Source: Basidioascus undulatus (lineage: Eukaryota). From it: 32,347 bases of DNA. Shown here piece after piece: positions 956 through 31,126 of the stretch. The stretch lies in assembly GCA_000826855.1 (NCBI GenBank), contig JTLS01000092.1:1-32347 (forward strand), in the 5' to 3' direction. Position 1 is the first letter of the stretch. Each line of letters begins with the position of its first letter. The notes under the pieces are model-generated. The model was not told the origin of the DNA, did not search any database, and saw only the letters and a program-made list of their open reading frames with translations. Both the position numbers and the translations under genes were made by a program.

Positions 956-3900
956 ATGAAGTTCAGGTGCGTGCGTGTCTGGTGCTTGCTCAGATGCGGG
1001 GGGCCTTGGATGGACGACAGTTGCCTGTGTTCGGCATTCAGCCGCCCCGCTGTCGTCTCTGTTCTCCTCCGTTCCTTATCCACCGCGTTACATCTCCCCC
1101 CGGGCTCCCGGCAGAGATAGCTGACGATGGCATACACCCTCATTCTCGCCCCCCTCTCCGCCCTGCGATATGACTGCCATTAGTCACTCGCTCCAGATCA
1201 ACGCCGTGCCGGAATGGACGGACAAGTACCTCGCATACTCGAACCTCAAGAAGGCAATCTATCAGCTCGAGAAGGAGCAGACGCCCGACGCGGCCGTGCC
1301 GTACTCTGACGACGCCGAGGGCGAGATCCTCGAGTCCGCGGCACTCCTCCGCGAGCCCAACCAAAGCGCCAGCAACAAGATCTTCATCCCCCTCCTCGAC
1401 CGCGAGCTTCAGCGCATCGTCGCGTTCTACACCGACAAGGAGCGCGAGCTCGAGGCGGACAGGGAGGCGCTGCTCGGGGACATTGAGCGCGTCGAGGTGG
1501 CCGAGTTCCCGTATGGCGAGGGGGATGGTGAGGACGAGGAGGGCAGTGATGAGGGGAGCGACGATGAGGACGTCGATGCTGTCCCGAGGTTGCGGAGGTC
1601 TTCGGGAAGCAGGAGGAGGCCCAGCTGGAGGGGCAGGAGGGCTAGCAAAGCCGGTGAGTCGCTCGGGTCAGGACTGCAGACGGAGATGGACAGGAAAGGG
1701 ACCGCTGACGCCGGTGCAATCTAATAGACCTCTTCTCCGACCCGACGCGTTACAACGAGTCTCATCCGCACGACACCGACCTGCGTGAAGCGCACTATGC
1801 GCAGCCCGCCCCCGACTCCCCTGAAAGCTCCAATCTCCTCCTTCCGCCGGCCTCGGACGGCGGGTCCAGCAGCCACACCAGGTTCCCGACCGATGCGACC
1901 CGACGCCCGCGCACGCTCAGCAACCCCTCGAACGGCCACAACCGCTCGCCTTCGGCCCCCAATAAGCGTCCGTCCACGCGGCGCTTGAGCATGAGCTTCT
2001 TCGGACGCAGGCGCTCTGCCACGGCGGCGGAGATTGCACCGGGCGAGGCAGGCGCGTCGGTGTGGACCGCCGAGAGCGACTACGCGATCGACCAGCGCAT
2101 CATGTTCAAGCGCCGCATCACCGACCTCTTCGTCGCGTTCTCGGAGCTCAAGCAGTATGTCGAGCTCAACCGGACGGGCATGAAGAAGATCCTCAAGAAG
2201 TGAGGCGCCCTTTCCCTTTCGATTCGCGTTTTGGAACGCTGGGAGCTGACGAGCCCGGCGACACGCACAGGTACGACAAGATCACGGACAACGACCTCAA
2301 GGACACCTTCCTCGAGCAGGTCGTCGATCGCGCATACCCCTTCCAGAAGGGCACCATCGAACGCCCGGACGAGTCCATCCTCTCGCTCGCCCAGGCGTAC
2401 GCCAAGGTCGTCACGCTCGGCGACGTCGATCTCGCTCTAAAGCAGCTCCGCAGTCGTGAGTAATCTCGCTGCTTGAACAGAGTCCGTGCTCGAGCTGAAA
2501 GCGTTCTCGTCTTTCGCCTAGATCTTCGCGAGCACATCGTGCTCGAGCGCAACACCGTTTGGCGCCAGGTGAGTCTCGTTCTGGCTGACTGTATTATAAG
2601 TCTGCAGCTGATCATGCGTCTCCAGATGGTCGGCCAAGAGCGTCGCGCGCATGGTATCAGCCTGTCGCAGCCGCAACTGGCCATCGCCAAGGCGGGCAAG
2701 GCGACGGGCATCGCGCGCTACGTGCCCTCCTGGCTCTCCCGCCGACTCGTCGTCTCCACGCTCGCGGCTGCCGTGCTCATGGCCGTTGTCGACGCGGACA
2801 TCTACGACCGGCCCGAGGAGCAGAACTGCCTCGCCATCCTCATCTTCTGCACGATTCTGTGGTCGACCGAGGTGGGCCTATGTAACTGCGTGTCGACCGG
2901 GTAGGTCATTTCGGCTGACGGAAGCTGGAACACCCAGGCCGTCCCGCTCTTCGTCACCTCGCTCATGGTTCCGTTCCTCGTGGTCGTGTTGCGCGTGATC
3001 CGGACATCGGACGACGAGCGCGCACCGGCGAATGATGCGGCGAAGTGAGTTCTCTGACCGCGATGTGCTAGACGCGCTGTCCTAAAGTCGGTCGTCTGCT
3101 AGGTACATCTTTTCGCAGATGATGAACCCGACGATCTTCCTGCTCCTTGGCGTAAGTTGCTGCACCTGCATGCTGAGGCATCCAGGAGACTGAGCTTTCG
3201 TTCGCAGGGCTTCACCATTGCTGCTGCGCTCTCCAAGCACGGCATCGACCGCGTGCTCGCCATGCGCGTCCTCAGCCTCGCCGGCACGCGCCCGAGCTTC
3301 GTCCTCCTCGCGCATATGGCCGTCGCGTGCTTTGCGAGCATGTGGATCAGCAACGTCGCCGCCCCCGTACTGTGCTTCTCTCTTATCCAGGTTCGTCACC
3401 TAGCATCTTTTGGACGCTTCCATTCCAAGCAGGCGCTGATCGTCTTCGGGACAAGCAGCCTATCCTTCGCAAACTTCCGCCAAAGTCTCCTTACGCCAAG
3501 TCTCTTATCGTGAGCTTTGTGTCACAGTCATCAGGTGGGCTGAGCTGATGCACGTCCCTCGCAGCTCGGCATCGCTCTCGCCGCCAACATCGGTGGGCAG
3601 GCGTCACCGATCGCGTCAGTGAACCTGTCTTCTGATGCCAATTCAACCGGCTCACACACTTGTGCACGTCCAGCTCGCCGCAGAACCTGATCGCACTGCA
3701 AGCGATGGACCCTCCGCTCGACTGGCTGCAGTGGTTCGCCATTGCTCTGCCCGTCTCCGCTATCTCCCTCATCCTCATCTGGCTGCTGCTGCTCCTCTCG
3801 TTCGGTTCGGGCCGCGGCACGGTCATCAACCGCATCCGGACGAGCAAAGACTCGTTCACGCCGACCCAGTGGTTCATCGCCGCCGTCACGATCTTCACGA

Positions 3901-7912: not shown

Positions 7913-10900
7913 ATGGCGCTCACCGCTTTCCAACACACCGGCCAGCTCCTCTATACCCCTCAATCTCCCTCGACCTCGTCTCGGATCGACTGTTTCAGGG
8001 ACAGGATCAACGAGAAGTACGGGCTGCGGCTGGGTAACTACGAGCAGGTGGGTCTTGCTTCTCAATATTCCCCAGGTTATTCAAACTGAACGAGGAACGT
8101 TTAGCTGTGGCAATGGAGCGTCGACCATATTGACCAGTTTTGGGGCGAGTGCTGGGAGGAGGTGGGCATCGTGAGCAGTAGGAAGTGGGACGAGGTGCGT
8201 TCCCAATGTCCGCACCTTTCTCTGATATGTGTTCAGAACTTACCTCATGGAAGGATGTCGAGCACAGGTAGTCGACTCTGCTGCGCCGATCCAGTCAATC
8301 CCGCCCTGGTTCAGAGGCGCGAAGCTTAACTGGGCAGAGAACATGCTCGTCTGCCGGTCCTCGACCAAGGTCGCCCTCGTCCAAGCCAGTCCGTCCATCT
8401 TATCAAATTATATATCTTGAACTGCCCTCACACTATCTCGGACAGCCGAGCCTTCGCCGCCCACCGGCCCCATCGCTTCGACCCTTCGCCGCGTAACGTA
8501 CGCCGAGCTGTATTCGCTCGTCCAGCGAGCCGTGCGCACGCTTCGAGCGTGGGGCGTCAAGCCTGGAGACCGCGTTGGAAGCTACATGACTAACTGCATC
8601 GAGAATGTCGTCGCTGTTCTGGCCACTGCATCGATCGGCGCGATCTGGAGCTCCGCCGCGGCCGACTTTGCGCCCGAGGGCGTCGTCGAGCGGTTCGAGC
8701 AGGTGCGTTGTTGTATTGAAATTCCCTACCGGAGATTTGACTGAACACTGTGTCTAAAATAGATTCAACCCAAAGTGCTCTTCTCGCTCTCGTCTGTGCA
8801 GTACAACGGCAAGATGCATGCGCACATCCCCAAGCTCGACACGGTCGCTGCCGCTCTGACAGCGAAGGGCATCGCGCCCGAGAAGGTCGTGGTTGTTGGC
8901 GGCGAGGTTTCGGAGGGCCACATCGGGTGGGATGAGTTCTTGAGCGCCGGTCAAGGCGCGGAGGATGGGAAGGCGGAGGGTGAGATCGACTTCTACCAGG
9001 CCGACTTCGACCAGCCGCTCTGGTGCGTTCGTGTGTACCGCGTACGCTTCCACGGAGTAGCCGCTGACTGCTTGATCGATTTCCAGGATCCTCTTCTCTT
9101 CCGGAACGACCGGTACGCAGCAGTCTCTTCCCGCGTGGGCAAGTTCTTGAGCAAAGCACTGATCTTACGGGCCGCAACTGCAGGCAAGCCTAAGCCGATC
9201 CTGCATCGTGCGGGAGGGATGCTTCTGCAGGTGTGATCTCCAGTGGTACCGATAAAGCGTTGACGAAGCTAACAGTCAGGGTTGATGCTCGTCAGGCTAA
9301 GAAAGAGCACATTCTGCACTCGAACCTCACGCCGGACGACGTCTTCTTCTACTTCACCACGCGTTAGTCTTGGTCTTTGCACGTCACGGCCGGACCGAAC
9401 TGCAGCTGATCAGCCTCACGAATGTGATCAGCCGGCTGGATGATGTGGAACTACCTTGTCCAGGGCTTAAGGTACCTTCTGCGTCGGTGCTCATTGTCCA
9501 CAGCTGCCTCGCTGACGGTTGCGCAGCGTCGGCTGCACCCTCGTGCTGTACGACGGGGCCCCTCTGCAAGATCCCTCCATTCTGTGGCGGCTGGCCGAGG
9601 AGACAGGGATGACCGTGTTCGGGACGAGGTGAGCTGCGCTTCTCCAGTTTGCGGACGAACGCACCGGATCTAACATGAGATCGAGGGTACAGCGCGAAAT
9701 ACCTCGAGGTCCTGCAGCAGAAGGGCTATGAGCCGAAAAAGCACCACGATATCTCCCGCATCCGTACGCCTTGTGTAATCATTCATCCTTTCCAGCACGA
9801 CGATATTGAATGTCCGGCTCGCCCACAGGCCAAATACAGTCGACCGGCTCTCCCCTCACTCCACCTCAATTCGACTACGTTTACTCCTCCATCTCCCCGT
9901 CCGTGAACCTCGCCTCCATCGTGCGTCCTGTCCCCACGCTCCCCCTCTTCGTGGCTGATCTCTTCACCACGTCCCGCCCAATTGCAGACCGGCGGCACGG
10001 ACCTCTGCAGTCTCTTCGGCGCGCCGCTCGCGTCCGGCCCCGTTTATCGCGGCGAGATTCAAGTCCGCGGCCTGGGCATGGACGTGCGCTCGTGGGACGT
10101 CGACGCCGGTCGGGAAGCTGCGCCCGGACAGCCTGGAGATCTCGTTTGTGCCAAGAGCTTCCCGATCCAGCCGCTCGGGTTCTGGGGAGAGGAGCTCGGG
10201 GAGAAGGGCAAGCGGTATAGGGAGAGCTACTATTCCCAGGTTGAGGGGATGTGGTGTACGTGCTTGCTTGATTCAGAGGTTGGTTTTGTCGGTAGGGGAT
10301 CGAGAGACTGACGGTGCGGGACAAGGAGGATAGACCACGGCGACTATTGCATTCTGACGCCGCATCGAGGCGAAATCGGAGCAGGCATCGTCATGCTTGG
10401 TCGATCCGACGGTATCCTGTGAGTCCCCTGCGCAGTAACCCAATTTTCCCGTTTCCACCATTCTGATCACCCTCTCATCTGGGCGTTTAGCAACCCCGGC
10501 GGCATCCGCTTCGGCTCATCGGAGATTTACGACTCGCTCTCGTCCCTGCCCGACGCATCCGCCCCGCTCGTCGACTCGCTCGTGATCGGCCAGACGCTGC
10601 CGCAGTCGGGCGACGAGCGCGTCGTGCTCTTCGTGCAGCTCGCTGCCGGCGCGGTACTGAATGATGGGATGATCGAGAAGATCAGGAGGCACATCAGGGA
10701 GCGGAGGAGCCCGAGGCACGTGCCCGAGCGCGTCGTTCAGGTGCGGGACGTACCGCACACGATCAACGGGAAGAAGGTGGAAGTGCCGATAAAGAAGGTG
10801 CGCTTGCGCTCTGTTTCACTTCGACTTTCTGTAAGCGACTGACGGTGATTTCCTTTCCCCAGATTATCAACAAGATGGGCGCCGGCATTGCAGGCATCAA

Positions 10901-10985
10901 CCGTTCGACCCTGCGCAATCCCGAATGCTTAGAAGAATATGAGAAGCTCGGAGAGACGCTGAGGGAGGAAGTGAAGGGACGATGA
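7913..10985 (+). CDS. Acetoacetyl-CoA synthetase (acetoacetate-CoA ligase), multi-exon
   Basis: Motifs PPWFRGAKLNWAENML, GAIWSSAAADF, ILFSSGTTG|KPKPILHRAGG, GWMMWNYLV, STGSPL, TGGTDLCSLF, HGDY..LGRSDGIL|NPGGIRFGSSEIY, RSPRHVP, INGKKVEVPIKK. TGA at 10983-10985. Divergent from UTR4. Confidence 0.93.
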
Positions 10986-15095: not shown

Positions 15096-16067
15096 TTAGG
15101 CAGCCTCGGCCTTGACCTTCTTGGTCGCAACAGTGCCCTCCCCTGTGTAGCGGAGCAAGAAGGACGAAAGTGGTATGTACACGTTAGTACGGCATGGAGG
15201 ACTGGGACGGTGGAACGCAGGGTACGCACGGAAGCCGTTCTTGAAGCGGCGAGAGACGTGCTGCAGGTGGCGCATGCGGCCAGTGCCGGTCGTCTTCCTG
15301 CGCTTCGCCTTCTGGCCCCAGTTGTACGAGCGGAGCTTGGCCGAGGGGTAGCCGCACTGAGCACAGGCTGTGGGGCGGTCGGAGGAAGGGGCGGAGGGGA
15401 AGGCCCAAGGGAAGGCAGTCGGAGAGGTGGTCCAGTTGAGGAGGGTCGAAGTGGGACGCGAAGAGGTGGATAATGGAGTGAAATTGTGTGGAGCGGGGCG
15501 GCGAAGAGCGGAGGTGGTGAGAGTGCGCGGGCGGAGGGGCAAAGAGGGCAGAATTGTCAGCGTGCAGCTCGTCCCGACCGCGTCCCTCCCCGCCCGTCCA
15601 TTTCCAGCGCCTCAAGCTCCCTCCCAGCTTCGCCCAACTGCCCGGGAAACAGAGAAAGAGATACGCACTCTTGTGCTGCTTGTGGAACGCCCTGTTGCCG
15701 CAGCGACGGCAGAGGGTGTGCGACTTGGTGTGACGCTTACCGAACGAGGAGGTACCCTTCGTCTGTGCGCCCCAAGTTCCCGCCCAAAGTCAGCATAACG
15801 ACGCCCTCGCCGCCTGGACAATTGTGTGTGTTGCGCGTAGGGTGTAAAAGAGGCGGGGGTCCTCGAGAAAGCGAGCGAGCGAGTCCGTCGTCGCCAGGAG
15901 GCCAGAGGCCCGCCCGCCCGCCTCGTAGTCCAGCCGCCTCCCGGCCTCGAATCCAGCCCAGCCAGTGCGAATTTCGGGACCGCACGAGCACGAGCGTGCT
16001 CCCAGCGGCGTAGGGTGTCGATTGGGATGGTGTAGGGGTGCATTGAGGGACCGTAGGGACTCGCCAT
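15096..16067 (-). CDS. RPL37: 60S ribosomal protein L37 (eL37), 4 exons
   Basis: Exons 16067-16065 (ATG only), 15762-15669, 15367-15230 and 15142-15096 give [93 protein letters not shown]. The first intron has a GC donor (GCGAGT). Confidence 0.97.
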
Positions 16068-18476
16068 CGCTGCCGGATCTTGGTGGGGACGAGGGTGAAG
16101 GAGGCGCGTTCCCCTCCTTCCTTCTCTCGTCCCCTCGAGTTTTCGAAGCGAGCGGAAATTAGTTAGTCATCAATTTTGCAGCATTTTTTCTCCTTTTCAC
16201 CTTCGCCCTCGTGTTGTTTCTTTGACGTGCTACTCCATGTAGAGTTGGGAACCTAATATTCAGATTAATCCAGAAGAATACTTCGAGTGAATAGCAAGTT
16301 AACAGGCAACCCCAGTGTTTTGTCGACCTTGGGCAACTCGCCCCATTCGGACTCCGACTTCGCCGTCAAGCTCGTCCCGACTGCGTGACACGCTCCCCCT
16401 CGAATAGCTTATTTCAAGCATGTGATATGAGCAAGGCATGTCAAGAGGAAACCTCCCCCACGGAGCCGACGATGTTCTGAGGCAGGGATTGAGGATTGGG
16501 CATGGGCGACCGGCGCGTGATCCTGACCGTTCACTCGCTCCGCACAACCCGACGCTCCACTCAGCTGGGATACCCAGGAGCACTCTAAAAAGCCTTAAGA
16601 AGGCAAAAGGAAGCCGCGTTCTGACACATAAGGGCGGGAAGGACTCTTGACTGTGGCACGGTTGGCACAGCAGATGGCAGCAGCCATGGCCACGTCCCTG
16701 CACCCAGATGTGCGTCTCGTTAGACCTCCTCTCTCACTGATTGGGGATACTGGGCCTGGAAAGACGGAACGACGGTGTTTCGATGACAAGCCTCCCTAGA
16801 TATGCTCGGTGCCAGTACCGTACCAGTGCGTTTTCAGACTCAGCTATCTTATCACGAAACCTGACATAAGTGACAGCTTGCGCTCGCATGCCATGACTGT
16901 ATAGCTACACAAACTGACAGGCATTCCTACCGTTGGTGCAGTGCATGACATGGCAGCCAGACGGAATTTAAGGCAGCCGCTGTTGTTATCCCTGGAAAAG
17001 TTTATATAATTCCATTTTTCTCGTTCCTTTCAAGTACATTTACCAAAGGCGACAGTCTCTGCCCGTCTTCGAAGGTGCACCTGTGCGTGTCCCTTGTGGC
17101 TGTTCGGGTAAGACCTCGGGGAGCTGCATACAAGGTGCAAATTGCGTCGAACGTGAATATACCATTCAGCCCTTCCCTTGGGCTTCAAGCTTTCCCGTTA
17201 GAGCGGTGATGAAGGTCTAGACGTTCTGCATATGATAAGAACGACCAGCAATACAACCTTGGGCAAAGCACGAGGACCGCCGCATAAGCTGGCTGTACTC
17301 AATCGTTGGCTTACTATTGCTTCCTGAATAAAAGGTTATATTTTGAAACCCCCGGGCACACAGGAAAGAAAGTCCTCCGGTTTCTTGCGCTTTCGGGGAC
17401 ACGGGGGAACTGCCACTCAGTGGGAAATATCCTGCAAAGAAATCAATGGGTGTTACTCATTTTTTTCATTCGATTCGATGTTAATCTCCCCATGCAGTGA
17501 TAGCTCGCATGCTTGCGGATACGGTACTTGACACGCATCTTGTTCGCAGCCTCCGCACGGCTCTAACAAAGAGTTGCCTATCTTCCTTCAGACTTATCCG
17601 AAGTACAAACAAGAAAATGCACATGTCTATGTTCAAAAGGATCCACTTGCAAACACTACCATTGAACACCCCACCGATATCCGGTTGCTAACTTATGTCA
17701 GCTGGCGGTGTTCTTTTCCTTCATCCGATCCGCCCAGAGGACTCTGGAGCCATATCGCCTCCCATGTGACCTCACTCAATCATGATAGCCCAGAATTTTC
17801 AAACGCCGGGGTAATATTCGACCTTCCAAGGAACGTTGTTGCATCGAGGCCATAACAAGCTGAAGGGCATCAGCTTCAACTGCCGACGAAGTCTGCCGTT
17901 GATGATATAGGACGTTGTCAGGACGACCTATCAGAAATTCTGCACTTTTCTGCTCGATGGGCCCAAATCTCCTCGACACTGTTTGAATTCGCGCGTCCAT
18001 GTCGACACCACGGCCGCGGCTTGCCAGGTCACAGTAGACAGTCTTCGTACTGCTGGTTCGATTGTTGGATTTGGTATTCCGCTGTAACTCCAATGGCAAG
18101 TGGTGGGGCCCTTTATGGGCAGATATTCAAGCTGCCTACCCGTAGCGTTGGGCGATGCTTGCGGGAAACATTGTTTGGCGCCTCATCAGCGGCAGGGCTC
18201 ATCACCGCAGATGTCTCCTTGCCTCATTGTAGCAAGTTGCTACTAGTCAGACTCGGTTAAAGTCGAACGCAAGCGCTAGTTAGAAAAGGTCCAAATTATC
18301 TCTATATGCTGAAAAGTGAAAGGTCAGCGAGGCGGTGAGTTGATAGCGAGGGCGCGTCGCCCCCTTTCACGCGCCAACCCCCCCGGGAATCCAGGCTTGT
18401 CCCTCGACCTCATCCTCATACCGCACCTTACCTGCCCGCTCGGTGACGTCTCAGACCCAATTCATCAAAATCAAAC

Positions 18477-21400
18477 ATGTCGAGCGCACCTCCACTGGGT
18501 ATTCCGATAGTACAAGTTTCTGGTCCTCCAGAAGTCTATACGTAAGCGCCCAGCGACTGGGACGTGGGGATGCCGCCGCGCCGTTTCGCTGAAGCCTCCT
18601 CCATAGGGAAATTGATTCGGACGACTGGCCTTCTGAGGAAAGCGAGGAAGAGATCGACGAAGATACCATGGTCAATATCATTATGGAGGGTGAGCTGTCG
18701 ATATCCTCCAAGTGACGCTGATCCGGCATTCCGCCGTCTTCCGAAACTCACCTCGAGCGCGTTATTACGCACAGCCCAGGAGGCGTTCACCGCAGAGCAG
18801 ATTGACGCCATGGAAGAGGACCTCAAGGAGATTGGTAAACATATTCGCACTTTTTGTCGCTTTTGTTTAAGCGACGCTCAAGCACGTGGGCAGGTCTTTT
18901 CGGCTTCATTAGGAAATACGTGGTGGAGCGGCAAATCCCCATTCGCAAGCTCCTCCTCGCTTTTGGCGTTCTGCTGGTCAGCCCATCATCAGCGCACCGT
19001 CAATTCCATGGATCTAACAATATGTGTGGTCGGTTCAGCCAGCAGCGTACAACGACCCGACTATCGGCGAGGAGGCGCTCCTTCCTGTGTGTTCTGTCCG
19101 CAACTCCTCTTTTCCTCTTCATGTCTAACGGCATTCCACAGCTCCTTCGCGTCGCTCTCGCACGCATACTGCGGCAACGCGCGAAACTTCCAAATATTAA
19201 CACCATTGATGACGTCGTGCACCTCCTCAGAACGTCGCAGCGCATTATCGTGCTTTCTGGCGCTGGGGTGCGTTCTCCCGCGCCTTGAGCTCAAAGCGAA
19301 CCAGGCTGACACGACACGTCCTTCAGATTTCCGTTAGCTGCGGAATAGTATGATAGTGTTTCTTGTATGTATCTGCACAACTGCTTAGTCGAGTTTCTGC
19401 AGCCCGACTTCCGCAGTTCAACTGGCATATACCAACGCTTGAGGGACGAGGGCACGTACGAGCTAGACGACCCGCAACAGATGTTCGATAAGGACTTCTT
19501 CCTCGAGAACCCGAGCATATTCTAGTACGTGATGATCAAACCATTGCGGTATACTACGCAAGTACTGATGACTCCGTCGACCTCGCAGCTCTTTCGCCAA
19601 GGAGATCTTCCCCAGCAACTTCACTCCCAGCCCTTGCCACCGCTTTATCAAGGTACGTTTCTCCCGAGATAGTTTATGACCATACGATAAACCGTGCGTC
19701 CCAGCTTCTGGAGAACAAGGGAAAGGTACGTGACCCGATCGGAGAGCGCAAAAAAAAAATGCGAACACTCAACTAACTACTTCTCAATAGCTTCTTCGCA
19801 ACTACACTCAAAAGTGAGATCATCCTCATTCATCTACCAAACGTGTGATTAACGAATTTTAACCCGCAGTATCGGTGATTAATTAGCTCGTGTTCTAGAC
19901 GTGTTCGGCCAGTGCTGATTCTCCCACAGATACTCTGGAAACCGCCTGTGGCATAAAAAATGTCCTGCCGTGCCACGGATCCTTCGCGCAAGCTGCCTGT
20001 GTCCGATGCGGCCACACTGTGGACGGCGCCGGTGAGTTGCATCAATCGTGTCGAACCTCGCGCCGCGCGCGCTGACTCTTCGCCACAGATATCAAAGAGG
20101 ACATCATGGCTTGCCGCGTTCCGGCGTGCAAGGTCTGCACGGCCAGAAAGGCCGCCGAGCGAGCCGCAGTACCCAAAGCTCCGCCACGCAAGAAGCGCAA
20201 GACGACGGGGTGGAACAGCGAAGAGTCGGAGTCGTCTGAAGAGGAAGAACAGGAGGAGGGCCCGCCGCCAGTGATGAAGGTCAGCTTTTTGCCTTCTTTC
20301 CTATTCGTCAACCTAACCGCTGACAGTACATCCGTTGTGTAGCCTTGTATCGTGAGCTCACGTTCGGTGCCCGTCTTGACGTAGCAGCTCCCTAACGCCG
20401 CATGCTCTCTGATTAGACGTTCTTCGGTAAGTGGCAACTCCACCTCACAGGAAAATACGCTAGACATCAGGATTGAATGTCATGCCTGCACGCAGGTGAG
20501 AAGCTGCCCAGCGAGTTCGACCGCCTCCTCTTCGAAGACCGGGAGAAAGTCGACCTGCTTGTTGTGATCGGCACCTCCCTGAAAGTTGCGCCAGTGTCTG
20601 AGATTCTCGGTGAGTGATCAACACTGCTGTCTCGATTGTAATTTGGGCTGACGTCCATCAATAGCCCACCTTCCCCATTCCATTCCTCAGGTGCGGTTTC
20701 GCTGACGAGCATATACGGCATTACATTGGCTGACAACGGGGCGTCCACACAGATCCTGATCAACAAGACGCCTGTACAGCACTTCACGACGGATGTGAGT
20801 TGTCTATAATATGCTGAAATCTTGTGTCGGTGCTCACGCCGTATTTCTGATCTTAGATTACTCTGCTCGGGGATGCAGACGAGGTGCGCCACATTCCGTT
20901 TCGTCGAAGAGGCGCAACGCTCACAGTTCGCTGTCAGGTCATCCACGATCTTTGCTCCCGTTTAGATTGGCAGCTTCCAGAGCCCGCCGAAGAGGGCCCC
21001 GAGGGGCTCAGGGTTGAGGAGCCTGCTGGGAAAGGCAAGACGCCTGAGATTGAGCACCTGGGCGACGAGTACCCGAAGCGCGTAGCCGAGACGTGCGCCC
21101 CTTTCAGCTACCCTCAGCCTGCTCGTTGCACTCACGCCAATATGCCCAGTCATATCTGGCTATATCCCGGCGCCGACGGCGGCAAGTACATCGACAACCT
21201 GCTGCGGCCGCGCTCGCGCCCCGGCTCTCGCGCTTCGTCTCTGGTCCGCTCAGGACCTTCCCTCGGTACTCGTTCCCGCTCCGGAGCTTCCACCCCAGCT
21301 CCGTCCGAGTCAGAGACGTCTGTCGCCAGCGCGCCGACCACCGCCGTGCCGAGCGTGTCGAACTCACCCGAGATCAAGGGCCGGCGCGGGCGTCCGCCGA

Positions 21401-26068: not shown

Positions 26069-26339
26069 CTTGCTGATTGCTCGTCTGACCACGCCAGCCA
26101 AGGGTGATGTCCTCGAAGAGCGATGGGGGAAATAACCAGGGGACGATAGAGTGAGAAAACCTCTTGCGCGTCCGGGGTTACGGTCGCCGCGGCTCCTTGC
26201 AGCGCCTTTCACTCTTTCCTTCTCGTATCCCTGTCGCGGCGATACTAAGGCCATAAGTCTTATCTGATTTGATCAGAATCCACATGCTTTAAATTTATTC
26301 CATGCAGAGCGAAGAACCTCCGTGCACGAATTATCTCCA

Positions 26340-26800
26340 TGGACCTGTGTGACCAATGCGGTAGGTGCGTTGCAGCATGAAGACCTTCGAAGTTGCCGAA
26401 GCACATATTCACGTTTCTCAATGTGAGCACTAATGATCATGAGTGGCATTCTTGCCAATATCTCAACTACACGTTACCACTCGAGTACACCGCTGTGGAA
26501 GTGGTTGAGGAAGTCAGAAGAGCGAGCGTATTCGTCGCATCCGGGAGGCCCACCGTTGCTCACCGGTGCCAGTCCAGCCGCCTCTGGCTCCCGAGTTCAG
26601 CCCAGGCGACACAAGTTTGATTTCATCTAACACCCTCGAGCGTGTAGTCGAATGGTGTCGTTGGGCAACTCCGAACGTATAGGCTTGCCATCGCTATCGG
26701 ATCTTGGTGGGGAGGGACGACGTCAAGCGAGCCGCTCCCGTTCTCGAGACATTTCGCTGCTTCCGTTCACGCCGAGTGGAAGATATTTACTAAGTACCTG
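26340..26800 (-). repeat. Diverged copy 1 of the RPL37 5' region (UTR + ATG + intron 1), with no recognisable L37 coding exons
   Basis: CGGATCTTGGTGGGGA is identical at 26698-26713 and 16074-16089. AGTCCAGCCGCCTC is identical at 26571-26584 and 15927-15940. The matches are collinear and in the same orientation. Boundaries are approximate. Confidence 0.75.
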
Positions 26801-27123
26801 GGAAGCCTTTCAATTGGAACATATCGGGAATCGCACAGAAGCCCCACAGGCACTGGGTCCCTTCCTCAGAGACCACACCAGTCCTCGGTGGTCGAATCAT
26901 TTGAAGCTGCAGCTGGATCTCGGAAGGCTTCGGGCCTCACAGCTTGTCGACAGACGCACCGCACCCACCTGTTCATCGACTGTAGCCGGAGGCAGTTATG
27001 TGCCAAAAGAGACCGTGACGGTATTGGGCCGGTTGGATGCTTGTGGGTGCGGGAGACAAAGGGTCCCCCAAGGAGCACGGGCACATGAGAAGGAGCCGCA
27101 TGGGGTTGAGGATTAAACTATTA

Positions 27124-27195
27124 TTCCCCGTCCGGGAATCGAACCCGGGGCTGGGCGGTGAGAACACCCGATGTTAGCCACTACACCAACGAGGA
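27124..27195 (-). tRNA. tRNA-Glu (anticodon CTC), intronless
   Basis: Full cloverleaf: acceptor TCCTCGT/ACGGGGA, D arm GTGT-AGTGGCTA-ACAT, anticodon arm GGGTG-TTCTCAC-CGCCC, T arm CCGGG-TTCGATT-CCCGG. Confidence 0.97.
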
Positions 27196-27504
27196 GATTA
27201 GCTGCACTTGAGAGCTTATCAACCCAGTCGTGCTAGGCAATATCAGCGACGTCTCCGAGAGGAACTCTGATCCTGTAAGTAACGGTGGAGCCCGTTTTAT
27301 GCCTTGCATCCAACCGAATTCCCGGAAGGCTCACAGAAAACCTACACGCACAGCGAGTGACTGCACGCAGCGCCGCACAGAGGTCCACGGTCCTCGCTCC
27401 CCTCCCATCCGGCATCTTGACTCTCATTTCTTATTGTGACCTCGCTGCGAGTCGTGCTTCAAGTTTTCCTCATGAACAGGGAGAATATCCTTGGCGCCTT
27501 ACGC

Positions 27505-27861
27505 AACCAGTGTGACCAATGCGGTGCGTTGCATCCTGAACACCCTTCAAGTTGCCCAAGCACAAGCGCACAACTTGCGCTTCCCAATGTGAATATGAAT
27601 GACGAAAAGTTCCATTTTTACCGACATATCAATTGTACATCAGATTACATGGTCGTTGGAGTACTTGAGGAACCCAACAGAGCGAGCTTTTTCGCGTTCG
27701 TCGCAGCTGGAGGCACACCGTTGCTCATCGCCGTCTGCAAGTCCAGCCCCTTCTGGCTCCCAAGTGGAACCCATCGGACACAACTTTGCTCCAGTTTAAG
27801 CGACTGCAAATATCCGGTCTGACAATGTATTGGGGAACGTCTAGGCTCGCCATCGCTGCCG
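27505..27861 (-). repeat. Diverged copy 2 of the RPL37 ATG/intron-1 region; degenerate direct repeat of 26340-26715
   Basis: CTCGCCATCGCTGCCG is identical at 27846-27861 and 16060-16075. It shares TGTGACCAATGCGGT, ACCGTTGCTCA, AGTCCAGCC and TCTGGCTCCC in order with copy 1. Confidence 0.75.
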
Positions 27862-28149
27862 TCGGCGTCGCGCTCGTCCGTTTCTTTATGCGTGACAAGA
27901 AACCCCCAGCAGAAGACTGCTGCGAGACCGCAAAGCATCCTCTCAGTAATCCAAGCCGATTATAGAAGCTGAACTCTTGCCTCCTGGGTGCAATGGCTTC
28001 AGAGCGTCACGACCGCGTGCGCGAGGGAGCATATCACTTTTCATCGACGGTAGTGATGCGGTTATAGTTTGAGCGGAATCCACGTTACCTGACCATCTGA
28101 GCTTCCGAAAAATGCAAGATAAATGGGTTGCTAAGCAGTGACAGTCAAT

Positions 28150-28614
28150 GTCACATTGCTCTGTTGAGGATGGTGTTCTGTGTCGCGAGCGCGTGAAGCG
28201 TAGAAGGTCCTACGATGTCGTCGAGGGTCGCGTGTGGGATTTGGCGGGTGAACGTTAGCAGGTAGGGCGTGCACGTTCGATCGAGGTATCCCCCTCAATG
28301 TCGTACTCTGTACAGGAAGACATGAGGCTCTTGCCCCATCAAGGTGAGCTGGACAAGGAGATAATTGAAAGCTTCGACGGCCCTCGAACCGCTCAGAGTG
28401 ATCCAGTGGTACCGATGCCGCTCTGATACCAGCTACAAGGAGGTGCAGTATGCCTCAGCTACCCCTAGTAAGAAGTTTTTAGGGAAGATTGCGATTTACG
28501 TTTTAGAAGCGGTATATTAGCGCGATGCTCGCGCCCGCGTTGTATCTGCTTCTGTCGCCGATGGCGAGCTAAAAAACGCGACCATATCTCAGTGGGGAGA
28601 GCGGGACTGCGCAT
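28150..28614 (-). pseudogene. F-box protein pseudogene (3' extent uncertain)
   Basis: ATG at 28614: MRSPALPTEIWSRF-(frameshift in a T run)-LAIGDRSRYNAGASIALIYRF*N, then intron 28499-28433, then exon 28432-28307 LVSERHRYHWITLSGSRAVEAFNYLL. This fits the LPxEIW..IF..LxLVCRxW..LY..I.L pattern of fungal F-box proteins. TAA at 28503-28505 sits at the expected Trp. Confidence 0.65.
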
Positions 28615-29486
28615 TTTCTGCTGAGTTCGAGCGTCGAGCAAGTGTGATAGGAGGAAGGAAAATGTCAGGCGGTGGTGGTGGTGATGATGATGGTCGGATG
28701 GTCAAGAATGTCGCATTGGGCGGCATTCGGAGGCGGACCGTTGCCACACAACATGCACAGAACGTGGGCTTCCTCAGCCTTGTCTCAGCCCTTGCTGCTT
28801 TCTAGTTCGTAAGCACATGAAGACCATCATCTCTCTGGCCAAGAGCTACACGGAAAACGGCGTATTGCATTACCCAACTTCGCAGCTACAACCGGCAGCA
28901 ATGCAACGTTTCGCTTGCCATATCGTCGATCCGCTGATTTTCAGTTTGTGTAATCCATTGATGCAGATCAGCGCTCCCTTTACCGGTTACCTACTTTGTT
29001 CCTACCCGGCCTGAAAGACTGGGTATTGCGGCAAAAAAGCTCGCGCTGCGAAGGTTGCGCATTGCTCTCGGCTCGTGTCCGTGTTTGAGCTTGCGGAGCA
29101 ACTGTGTTGGTGGGCAAGACCTGTTCACAATCAGGAGAACGCGGTACTGCTAGCCGTTCCCAGATGGGTCCGCAACTGAACGCGCAACGGCTAAGTAAGA
29201 GCGGCATGGCAGACGTGCGGTTCTACTCGCACAGCCTCCTGCGCACTCACTCATTCCTCTCGTCGCACTCACTTAATCATCACCATCTATCAAGCCGTCC
29301 ACCGTCCATTCCATTCCTTCCAACTTTCCCTTCACCTCCCCGTGTTCCCACCTCCCACTCCCCACAACAGCACACCACAGCGCGGCGCCTGCGCCCCCTC
29401 TTCTCCTCTCCTCCTCCCACACTCCACCTTCCAGATCGACGATCGACAGCCCAACCCAACCCTAAGGCAGGCAGGCGCGACCCCGC

Positions 29487-31126
29487 CTACCAGATGAAGG
29501 GCACGAGCCTCCTCCGGTGCTTGGGGTACTTGTCGCCAAACTCGCGCTTGTACGCGCGGTGCTTCTTGTCGGCCCACTTGGCCATCGTTACAGCGCTGAC
29601 GACGAGGAAGACGGCGACTGCACACCCAACGCGAACCCATCAGCGACTTCCTTTTCTCACTGGTTCTGAGGGGAAGGAGAAAGGAAGGAAGGAACGCGGA
29701 GGGAGAGGGAGAGGGCGAGACGACCCACCGGCCCACGACCCCGACAGCGCCAGCATAGCCGACCAGCCGAGGATCTCGAACAGGTAGTTCGGGCACGAGA
29801 CGAGGCCGAAGCCGTACCCGCGCGGGATCCCGCGCTGCGTCGTTCCCTCCGGGCGGAGGTCGCGCAGCGTCGTGTGCGTGTCGAAGTTGGAGAATTGCGC
29901 GAACTGCGGAGAGGCGAGGTCAGCCGAGCCGTCGGTCAGTTCAGCCGTCCGGAATGAGAAGGGGGAAGAGGGAGGACAGAGGAGGAGGAAAGGGGAATGT
30001 GGGAAAGGGAAGGGAAGGGGAAGGGGAAAGGGACGGGGAGGGGAAGGGATGGGGGAAGGGGTGGCGAGAGGGGACGCACGAGCCAAACAGCGACGCAGCA
30101 CCAGAGGTAGAACTGATCGTCCCTGAGCGAGCCGGCGAGGTGCGGCGCAGAGTACCACGGCCCGTAGAGCGCGAGGGCGATGAGCAGGCCGGAGAGGAGC
30201 CAGTAGTGCGCGGAGCTGTTCCCCATCGGCTCGCATTAGTGCGGGAAACACGGAGAGCAGAGAAGGGGGGGGACGTGCTTCCGGAAGATGTTGCGGAAGG
30301 GCATGGTGGAGCTGGAGAAGCGGTGGACGCTGCGTGTCGGGAAGACGGTCAGGGACGAGGGGAGGGAGGAGGATGGGGTGAGGAGGCCGCACAAGAGCGT
30401 CTCGAGCTCGCGCTTTACGAAGTGCGCCATGACGAGGGCGTATGCCGCACTGTGTACCCCGCGGTGTCAGGTGGGAAGGAGGGTGGGAGGAGGGGGGAAG
30501 GAGAGAAAGAAGCACGTCTGCATATGCGAGTGCTCAAACTCGCGGCGGTAGATGGTCGGGCCAAAGTGGTAGAAGATGGGGTGGATGAGGAGCGGGCCGA
30601 GCTGGAGCGTTTGCGGGTTGGGTAAGTACGCAGGGGAAGGGGGAGGAAGTGGGAGGAAGTGGGAGGAAGTGGGAAGAGGACGGGAGGTGGATGGGGATGC
30701 AGACGCACGTATTCGACGAGGAAGACCACGCGCCAGCTGACTTGCGGGCCGAGGTCCTTGACATACACGTCGTCGCCGTCGCGCACGCCGAGGCTCGCGA
30801 GCGTCGCAGCGTGGGGGATAAGCGGCTTCTTGTCTGCGGTCGTGAGGCGCTGGCGGTCGGGGTAGAGCTGCCCGTCCATCGAGAACACTCATCAGCTTCA
30901 TTTGCCTATCCTACTAAGGATATCCAAGCACACAATAACAGAGAGAGGGGTAAAAGAGAAAGAGAAGCAGAGGAAGGAAGATACGCACCTTCCTCACGTT
31001 CCCATACACGGCCTTCTTGACATCCAGCACGGTCAGGTCCTCCGCCTTCTTCTTGTCAAACGCGAGCTTGAGGGGGAAGTTGCGCGACGGCTTGGACGAC
31101 CGCGAGTGCACCGTGAGCTGCACCAT
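29487..31126 (-). CDS. TSC13: Very-long-chain enoyl-CoA reductase (ubiquitin-like N-domain plus steroid 5-alpha-reductase domain)
   Basis: Motifs VKDLGPQVSWRVVFLVEY|LGPLLIHP, HFVKRELETLF|VHRFSSSTMPFRNIFRN|SAHYW, SNFDTHTTLRDLRPEGT..IPRGYGFGLVSCPNYLFEILGW, WADKKHRAYKREFGDKYPKHRRRLVPFIW*. Confidence 0.95.
29955..30070 (+). repeat. Polypurine (GGGAA-like) low-complexity tract inside a TSC13 intron
   Basis: Almost purely G/A with more than ten G-runs of at least 3. Confidence 0.85.
30641..30674 (+). repeat. 10-bp tandem repeat GGGAGGAAGT x3.4 in a TSC13 intron
   Basis: Three exact copies at 30641, 30651 and 30661, plus a partial fourth. Confidence 0.9.

Follow-up and report, generated by a model that had tools for sequence, protein, structure and literature searches.

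Two partial copies of the RPL37 leader and first intron upstream of RPS31 in Basidioascus undulatus

The genome of Basidioascus undulatus carries two degenerate sequences that resemble the leader, the start codon and the first part of intron 1 of the ribosomal protein gene RPL37, and in which no L37 exon was detectable. Both are on the minus strand upstream of RPS31, in a stretch of 32,347 nucleotides (contig JTLS01000092.1, assembly GCA_000826855.1), which was analysed at its whole length and is called the window below. We consider, with a probability of roughly 0.62, that the copies are real but ordinary relics of an unprocessed duplication of the 5' part of RPL37 at the DNA level. They would then be genomic relics of a common type, made to look unusual by the near-absence of coding sequence.

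Gene content of the window

The window was 58% G+C and was eukaryotic with many introns, with CTRAC branch-site motifs and short GT/GC..AG introns that point to a fungus. Pfam was run on the 134 stop-to-stop ORFs of at least 104 aa in the window, and the tRNA gene was found with ARAGORN.

~1100-3500, plus strand: SPX/citrate-transporter-like gene (Pfam)
~8400-10800, plus strand: AMP-binding enzyme gene (Pfam)
RPL37, minus strand: Pfam Ribosomal_L37e on exons 2 and 3
16067-16065, minus strand: ATG of RPL37, with intron 1 directly after it
16064-15763, minus strand: RPL37 intron 1, 302 nt, GC-AG, with donor GCGAGT, branch site CTGAC and acceptor CACAG
15762-15669, minus strand: RPL37 exon 2, then intron 2
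from 15367, minus strand: RPL37 exon 3
15873-16118, minus strand: RPL37 segment resembling the copies (parent or sister), made of ~50 nt of leader, the ATG, the GC donor and the first ~195 of the 302 nt of intron 1
~18800-19300, plus strand: DUF592 gene (Pfam)
ATG at 26069, minus strand: RPS31, a ubiquitin-S27a fusion (Pfam)
27124-27195, minus strand: tRNA-Glu(CUC) (ARAGORN; 7-bp acceptor stem read off the sequence)
~29600-30500, minus strand: steroid-dehydrogenase-like gene (Pfam)

The tRNA gene sits between the two copies and is a landmark outside the repeat. The proximal regions of RPL37 and RPS31 have a purine/pyrimidine tract in common (16104-16133 and 26202-26231, 77% over 30 nt, E 0.039 with blastn).

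The layout of RPL37, an ATG followed at once by an intron, was also found in its closest metagenome relative, L001, where the donor is GT, in contrast to GC in RPL37. Ribosomal protein genes, those of fungi included, are reported to have an excess of phase-0 introns that directly follow the ATG (PMC1626468). RPL37 matches that pattern, and the ATG/G(C)RAG junction is kept in the copies; that work, however, concerns gene structure rather than orphan copies, and the RPL37 donor in our window is GC.

Limits and homology of the two copies

26285-26744, minus strand: copy 1 (blastn and alignment)
26520-26744, minus strand: RPL37-like half of copy 1, with a leader remnant, ATG at 26691-26689, donor GCAAGC and the motifs GGCTGGACT, GCCTCC, GCGACGA and GCTCGCTC
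26285-26519, minus strand: half of copy 1 unlike RPL37, aligning with copy 2 only
27455-27861, minus strand: copy 2 (blastn and alignment)
27680-27861, minus strand: RPL37-like half of copy 2, starting at CGGCAGCGATGGCGAG, with ATG at 27853-27851, donor GCGAGC and the same motif series, and without the leader
27455-27679, minus strand: half of copy 2 unlike RPL37, without the CTGAC..CACAG of copy 1

Sensitive blastn aligned copy 1 (26285-26695) with copy 2 (27455-27857) at 65% over 429 columns (E 1e-38), and RPL37 (15873-16118) with copy 1 (26520-26744) at 62% over 251 columns (E 2.6e-10). RPL37 and copy 2 were joined by two shorter matches, 16039-16075 with 27826-27861 (81%, E 3e-4) and 15873-15945 with 27680-27757 (65%, E 0.12). 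Smith-Waterman scores of RPL37 with copy 1, of RPL37 with copy 2 and of both halves of the copies with each other were reached by 0/300 dinucleotide shuffles in each case. A repeat search over the window gave colinear families, spaced 1159-1169 bp apart between 26343-26699 and 27506-27861, and 10624-10647 bp from the RPL37 5' end to the first copy. These results bear out the preliminary description of this DNA, which had reported two orphan copies of the RPL37 leader and intron 1 flanking tRNA-Glu upstream of RPS31. The direct repeats that it gave as ~360 bp are real, but they are larger, about 410-460 bp, and begin further left, at 26285 for copy 1. No further copy was found in the 32-kb window beyond RPL37, copy 1 and copy 2.

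The 5' UTR of RPL37 is kept in copy 1, as had been noticed earlier: ~50 nt of leader could be aligned (26696-26744 with 16068-16118), and just before and at the ATG 26/28 bases are identical to RPL37. In copy 2 the leader is absent; the copy ends 4 nt before AGCGATGG, and CGGCAGCGATGGCGAG at its edge is identical to RPL37 in 16/16 positions. On the other side the likeness to RPL37 stops sharply at GCTCGCTC (15873), 110 nt short of the RPL37 3' splice site. The near edge of copy 1 is 215 bp from the RPS31 start, and its far edge is 675 bp upstream of that ATG. Between the spacers next to the two copies, 26745-27454 and 27862-28620, blastn found no significant likeness.

Start context and ordered motifs

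The 12-mer AGCGATGGCRAG, which is the start context, had three occurrences in the window (the RPL37 start, 26684-26695 and 27846-27857), all on the minus strand; 0.01 occurrences were expected from shuffles, and 0/100 shuffles reached three. The ordered series GGCTGGACT..CGACG..GCTCGCTC was found at exactly RPL37, copy 1 and copy 2, and any match to it appeared in 0/100 shuffles. Both the start/GC-donor context and the order of the intron motifs are therefore kept in the two copies, as first proposed. Their longest shared block is a 16-mer with CCAAT, GTGTGACCAATGCGGT, present on the plus strand at 26347-26362 and 27510-27525 and only there. Right after GCTCGCTC, copy 1 has a CTGAC..pyrimidines..CACAG series at 26517-26493. 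This series could complete an intron-like unit of 196 nt with GC-AG borders, and a frame of 10 codons would remain; it is absent from copy 2.

A scan of metagenomes with the leader/ATG motif gave 0 matches. At 80 metagenome L37 loci only the exons were alike (75-87% nucleotide identity), and intron 1, the leader and the copies had no match at E<=0.01. The upstream region of a locus's own L37 gene was repeated in 1/60 testable metagenome loci (L051, a distant relative). In three metatranscriptome runs a fraction of 0.05 of the words sampled from the window was present.

Downstream halves and absence of L37 exons

The ~235-bp downstream halves, 26285-26519 and 27455-27679, resemble each other with a score reached by 0/300 shuffles. 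When they were compared with the rest of RPL37 (rest of intron 1, exon 2, intron 2 and exon 3), their matches were equalled by 82/300 shuffles for copy 1 and 108/300 for copy 2; with exon 2 alone, 109/300 and 112/300 shuffles were as good, and with RPS31 there was no significant likeness. It means that past the branch-point region the copies match each other and not L37 exon 2, in agreement with what had been seen before.

Decayed L37 exons downstream, which the preliminary description had named as a sign of simple dead duplicates, were looked for by local alignment and tblastn, and none was found. The L37 protein (~first 79 residues) gave no true coding-frame match better than E ~0.1 in the window with RPL37 masked, and neither did all reading-frame segments of RPL37 and RPS31 against the copies; the best tblastn matches to the copies (E 0.001-0.03) were out-of-frame serine/arginine-rich segments. 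Three candidates were rejected. A decayed exon 2 at GCTGCGGCAAC had seemed alignable by eye and was not distinguished from the 109 and 112/300 shuffles, with tblastn empty. In copy 2, a possible plus-strand remnant of RPS31 (S27a) (27541-27570 with 25679-25651, 80% over 30 nt, E 0.27) had no support at the protein level and was ascribed to chance, and a plus-strand CxQCG resembling L37 exon 3 was non-colinear and non-significant.

Exon 2 is fixed in RPL37, so a copied exon should match better than the intron part, which is 56-60% identical, and no such match was seen. The copies therefore either never held L37 exons or lost them cleanly. Because the exons are absent and the likeness is to the RPL37 leader and intron, the copies are 5'-partial unprocessed fragments, which was one of the two alternatives offered at the outset: the homology is colinear, covers the leader, the ATG and ~195/302 intron bases, and stops sharply with no exon detectable. 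A processed (retro-copied) pseudogene was rejected, since the copies consist of leader and intron sequence without exons.

Coding potential, RIP and known RNA families

No codon periodicity was found in the differences between the copies, with mismatches by position of 38/128, 38/128 and 29/129, and ORFs covering the copies had 0 Pfam families. A plus-strand ORF of 133 aa (27421-27819, in copy 2) was rejected as a gene: it has no Pfam family, no periodicity and no rise in GC3 (GC1-3 of 0.53/0.44/0.54), and its frame is broken in copy 1. As expected of a gene-fragment relic, the homology is colinear and includes non-coding parts, and there is no constrained frame; the exons of the parent are absent. 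RIP was also rejected. Over 26200-27800 TpA/ApT was 0.45-0.71 and the second index, (CpA+TpG)/(ApC+GpT), was 0.97-1.41, and the copies differ by 54 transitions and 53 transversions.

Rfam at the gathering threshold over the whole window gave no match, and with E values of up to 5 allowed in 26100-28100 and 15600-16200 it gave nothing meaningful. A snoRNA scan had been suggested for the copies; in a search for box C, 0/13 sites (RTGATGA) of the window lie inside copy 1, copy 2 or the RPL37 segment. An intron-encoded box C/D snoRNA was rejected on these grounds.

Divergence and proposed order of events

In the three-way alignment of RPL37, copy 1 and copy 2, with pairwise identities of 56-71%, 85 ungapped columns were invariant. 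Columns uniting the two copies against RPL37 numbered 42, and the other two groupings had 24 and 15; K2P distances were 0.38 between the copies, 0.59 between RPL37 and copy 1, and 0.70 between RPL37 and copy 2. From these columns and distances, the split between RPL37 and the copies came first and that between copy 1 and copy 2 second, so that the chimera was duplicated after the RPL37-like piece had separated.

We propose the following course. A piece of RPL37 that began ~50 nt, or possibly ~95 nt, before the ATG and ended at about base 195 of intron 1 would have been copied and would have landed, in the same orientation, in the upstream region of RPS31, ~10.6 kb away, where it would have been joined to ~235 bp of unrelated sequence. 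The resulting ~430-460-bp chimera would then have been copied again ~1.16 kb away, the second copy without the leader, so that tRNA-Glu now stands between the two. Ectopic repair or recombination may have been the mechanism. Afterwards the copies would have drifted, with no coding function and no sign of a conserved fold. We infer that RPL37 was the donor, that ectopic repair or recombination moved the piece, and that the copies have no present function. Either the second event re-copied the ~430-bp unit alone, or the spacers decayed faster.

In the preliminary description, retention of intron motifs without exons was held to be unexpected for an ordinary pseudogene. It needs no selection on the copies. 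The intron motifs would outlast the exons because the copied piece probably included no exon, and the ATG and donor blocks have the highest identity because RPL37 is held constant there by its own function, which makes the divergence one-sided. Some of the standout motifs would thus lie where RPL37 itself is fixed (the ATG context, the donor and perhaps intron elements used by RPL37), only the copy side having diverged, and others may be ordinary clumps of a gapped alignment.

Some observations stand against relics without function. The spacers are unlike, so that a 1.16-kb tandem duplication, if that was the second event, would mean that the copies are better preserved than the DNA around them. 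The matches between the copies are clumped: the alignment of the copies has 10 exact runs of at least 8 (4.6 expected), a count that 5/2000 column shuffles reached and that gap columns inflate, and the window variance of their matches was reached by 27/2000 shuffles, with contiguous gap columns again inflating the result. The start-codon block is well kept (16/16 in copy 2, 26/28 in copy 1), the intron-like unit of copy 1 has its donor, CTGAC and CACAG, and copy 1 lies where promoter elements of RPS31 would be expected.

Possible regulatory reuse

CCAAT boxes and first introns play a role in gene expression. We consider a cis-regulatory role of the copies upstream of RPS31 possible but unlikely. 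The core promoter, leader and intron start of RPL37 in copy 1, and perhaps in copy 2, might have been reused for RPS31, either as an alternative first exon or as DNA with promoter or enhancer activity, with the shared blocks, the CCAAT 16-mer included, as candidate factor-binding sites. The position of copy 1 before RPS31 in the same orientation would suit this, as would its leader/ATG block with 26/28 bases of RPL37, the clumping of the matches with GTGTGACCAATGCGGT exact in both copies, and the purine/pyrimidine tract common to the proximal regions of RPL37 and RPS31 (E 0.039). However, no ribosomal protein gene lies directly downstream of copy 2, since the tRNA comes first; an upstream ATG with a 10-codon frame would be costly in an mRNA that is strongly expressed; visual inspection of the sequence shortly before the RPS31 ATG revealed no CTRAC branch site; and the two ribosomal protein genes in the window are too few for motif enrichment.

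We rate it as improbable that the copies are maintained, transcribed cassettes of leader plus intron, which would co-regulate RPS31 (perhaps also the tRNA neighbourhood) with RPL37 or soak up a factor for the splicing of the RPL37 GC-donor intron. Such cassettes would agree with the clumped conservation, with the retention of the ATG/donor block and with an intron-like unit that is complete in copy 1, but not with the high divergence and the lack of a structure signal.

Possible alternative origin as a dispersed repeat

Retroelements are drawn to tRNA genes in some eukaryotes, and the two copies flank a tRNA gene. All three sequences might stem from one dispersed repeat, such as a mobile element or a solo LTR, with one of them built into the 5' end of RPL37, or a copy-like sequence might have supplied RPL37 with its leader and the start of its intron; the 235-bp halves, which have no match to RPL37, would fit. 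We regard this origin as very improbable. An essential, deeply conserved gene has its start codon and splice donor within the shared piece, and its layout is the same in L001; moreover, the 32-kb window has no further copy, and 0/80 metagenome L37 loci are similar.

RNA structure

It had also been proposed that the copies form a small family of non-coding RNAs with a defined structure, or of decoys, which arose from a ribosomal protein intron. If they came from the leader and intron of RPL37, such RNAs might, for example, titrate a factor that regulates RPL37 splicing, L37 itself. All three sequences retain the ATG/donor block and four intron motifs, and in each of them pairing between the donor and the GCTCGCTC block can be formed. 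Yeast ribosomal protein genes autoregulated through intron structure are also reported (PMC12311795). The folding tests spoke against the proposal. On the minus strand fold z-scores were -0.18 for copy 1, +0.91 for copy 2 and -1.14 for the RPL37 leader with intron 1, and on the plus strand -0.29 and -0.13, values like those of shuffled sequence on both strands. The RNAalifold covariation term, +0.34 kcal/mol, amounts to none, with low power from three sequences.

A nested hairpin comparable to that of RPL37 had been drawn in copy 1. It can be drawn, but it is not more stable than shuffled sequence (z -0.58, +0.47 and +0.19 over the nested-hairpin sub-regions), and copy 2 pairs differently, joining GCUGGA with UCCAGC where the other two use GGGAG/CUCC arms. 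The splice donor (GGCGAGY) can pair with GCUCGCU of the GCTCGCTC block through 9, 7 and, with a mismatch, 6 pairs, in invariant columns; this 'zipper' duplex was rejected, being matched by 193, 224 and 283/500 shuffled introns. A conserved structured RNA or autoregulatory intron element was likewise rejected, from z-scores of -1.14 to +0.91, no covariation and a duplex no better than shuffles, three sequences giving little power. With folding, hairpins, covariation, donor pairing, Rfam and box C (0/13) all without support, structured RNAs or decoys are highly unlikely.

Full-length RPL37 pseudogenes whose exons drifted past recognition are still less probable: the best, non-significant local match of exon 2 does fall at the same place in both copies (GCTGCGGCAAC with GCTTCGGCAAC and GCTTGGGCAAC), but it is equalled by the 109 and 112/300 shuffles given above, tblastn found nothing, and exon 2 does not outmatch the intron part as it should.

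Comparison with known systems

The copies are most readily compared with unprocessed partial gene duplicates. They share with these a colinear homology to the parent that includes non-coding parts, truncation, lack of an open frame, a place on the same stretch in the same orientation, and a later local re-duplication. Unlike them, the copies hold only one codon of the parent, the ATG, and are promoter-leader-intron fragments fused to unrelated sequence upstream of a second ribosomal protein gene.

A likeness to the introner-like elements reported from fungi (PMC4457414) is that these, too, are intron-derived sequence in several copies. They are, however, whole introns that land in genes and are spliced, whereas our copies consist of leader, ATG and ~195/302 intron bases, are intergenic and are 56-71% alike. 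An introner-like element was rejected for this reason: a partial intron (~195/302) with leader and ATG, in intergenic DNA, and three copies in the window at 56-71%.

With the autoregulatory introns of yeast ribosomal protein genes (e.g. RPL7B, PMC12311795) the likeness is that the first-intron donor can pair with a downstream intron block. In contrast to those introns, the pairing here is no better than in shuffled introns and shows no covariation, and orphan copies are not known to be described for those systems.

Meaning of the copies

The two orphan 'ATG + splice donor' sites, with a ribosomal-protein-like leader upstream of RPS31, could mislead gene finders. The copies also show that an intron and a leader can be recognisable in a duplicate just because no exon was copied. 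If the copies were transcribed, or conserved in sister species, they would represent a rare case in which a promoter/leader/intron module of a ribosomal protein gene was duplicated and reused, and such reuse, if true, would bear on how ribosomal protein genes become co-regulated.

Splice donor and introns of RPL37

The minus-strand ribosomal protein gene RPL37 contains two introns of similar length:

15763-16064, minus strand, intron 1 (about 300 nt)
15368-15668, minus strand, intron 2 (about 300 nt)

The spacing of exon matches puts the intron between L37 exons 2 and 3 at about 40-110 nt in metagenome relatives. Intron 1 of RPL37 begins with a GC donor (ATG|GCGAGT; 16063-16064, minus strand), and the closest metagenome relative, locus L001, has ATG|GTGAGT at the equivalent position (127-135). 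GC donors were also identified in both orphan copies of the RPL37 leader and intron 1 start (GCAAGC and GCGAGC). Since both copies carry GC as RPL37 does, this donor arose before the duplication which gave the orphan copies.

Between the two copies, ARAGORN identified a well-formed tRNA-Glu(CUC) at 27124-27195. Rfam gave no tRNA match in the whole window at the gathering threshold, nor in 26100-28100 at E up to 5.

Repeated sequences and upstream regions

An 18-mer, AGCTCGTCCCGACYGCGT, was found within RPL37 intron 2 (15566-15583, plus strand) and, with one mismatch, some 300 nt 5' of the RPL37 start codon (16369-16386, plus strand); the two sites align at 74% across 38 nt (E 0.004). A weaker version with three mismatches was located some 150 nt 5' of copy 2 (28001-28018), giving three matches versus 0.08 expected.

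At the distant metagenome locus L051, the 500 nt that precede L37 exon 2 were similar to a stretch about 1 kb downstream (9432-9931 and 10491-10909; 61% across 443 columns, E 3e-11).

Upstream of RPL37 and the ubiquitin-S27a fusion gene RPS31 we observed similar tracts:

16104-16133, rich in pyrimidines on the plus strand and in purines on the coding strand, at -66 to -37 relative to the RPL37 ATG
26202-26231, plus strand, similar pyrimidine-rich tract, at -162 to -133 relative to the RPS31 ATG

Their identity is 77% across 30 nt (E 0.039). The tract may be a promoter element common to ribosomal protein genes.
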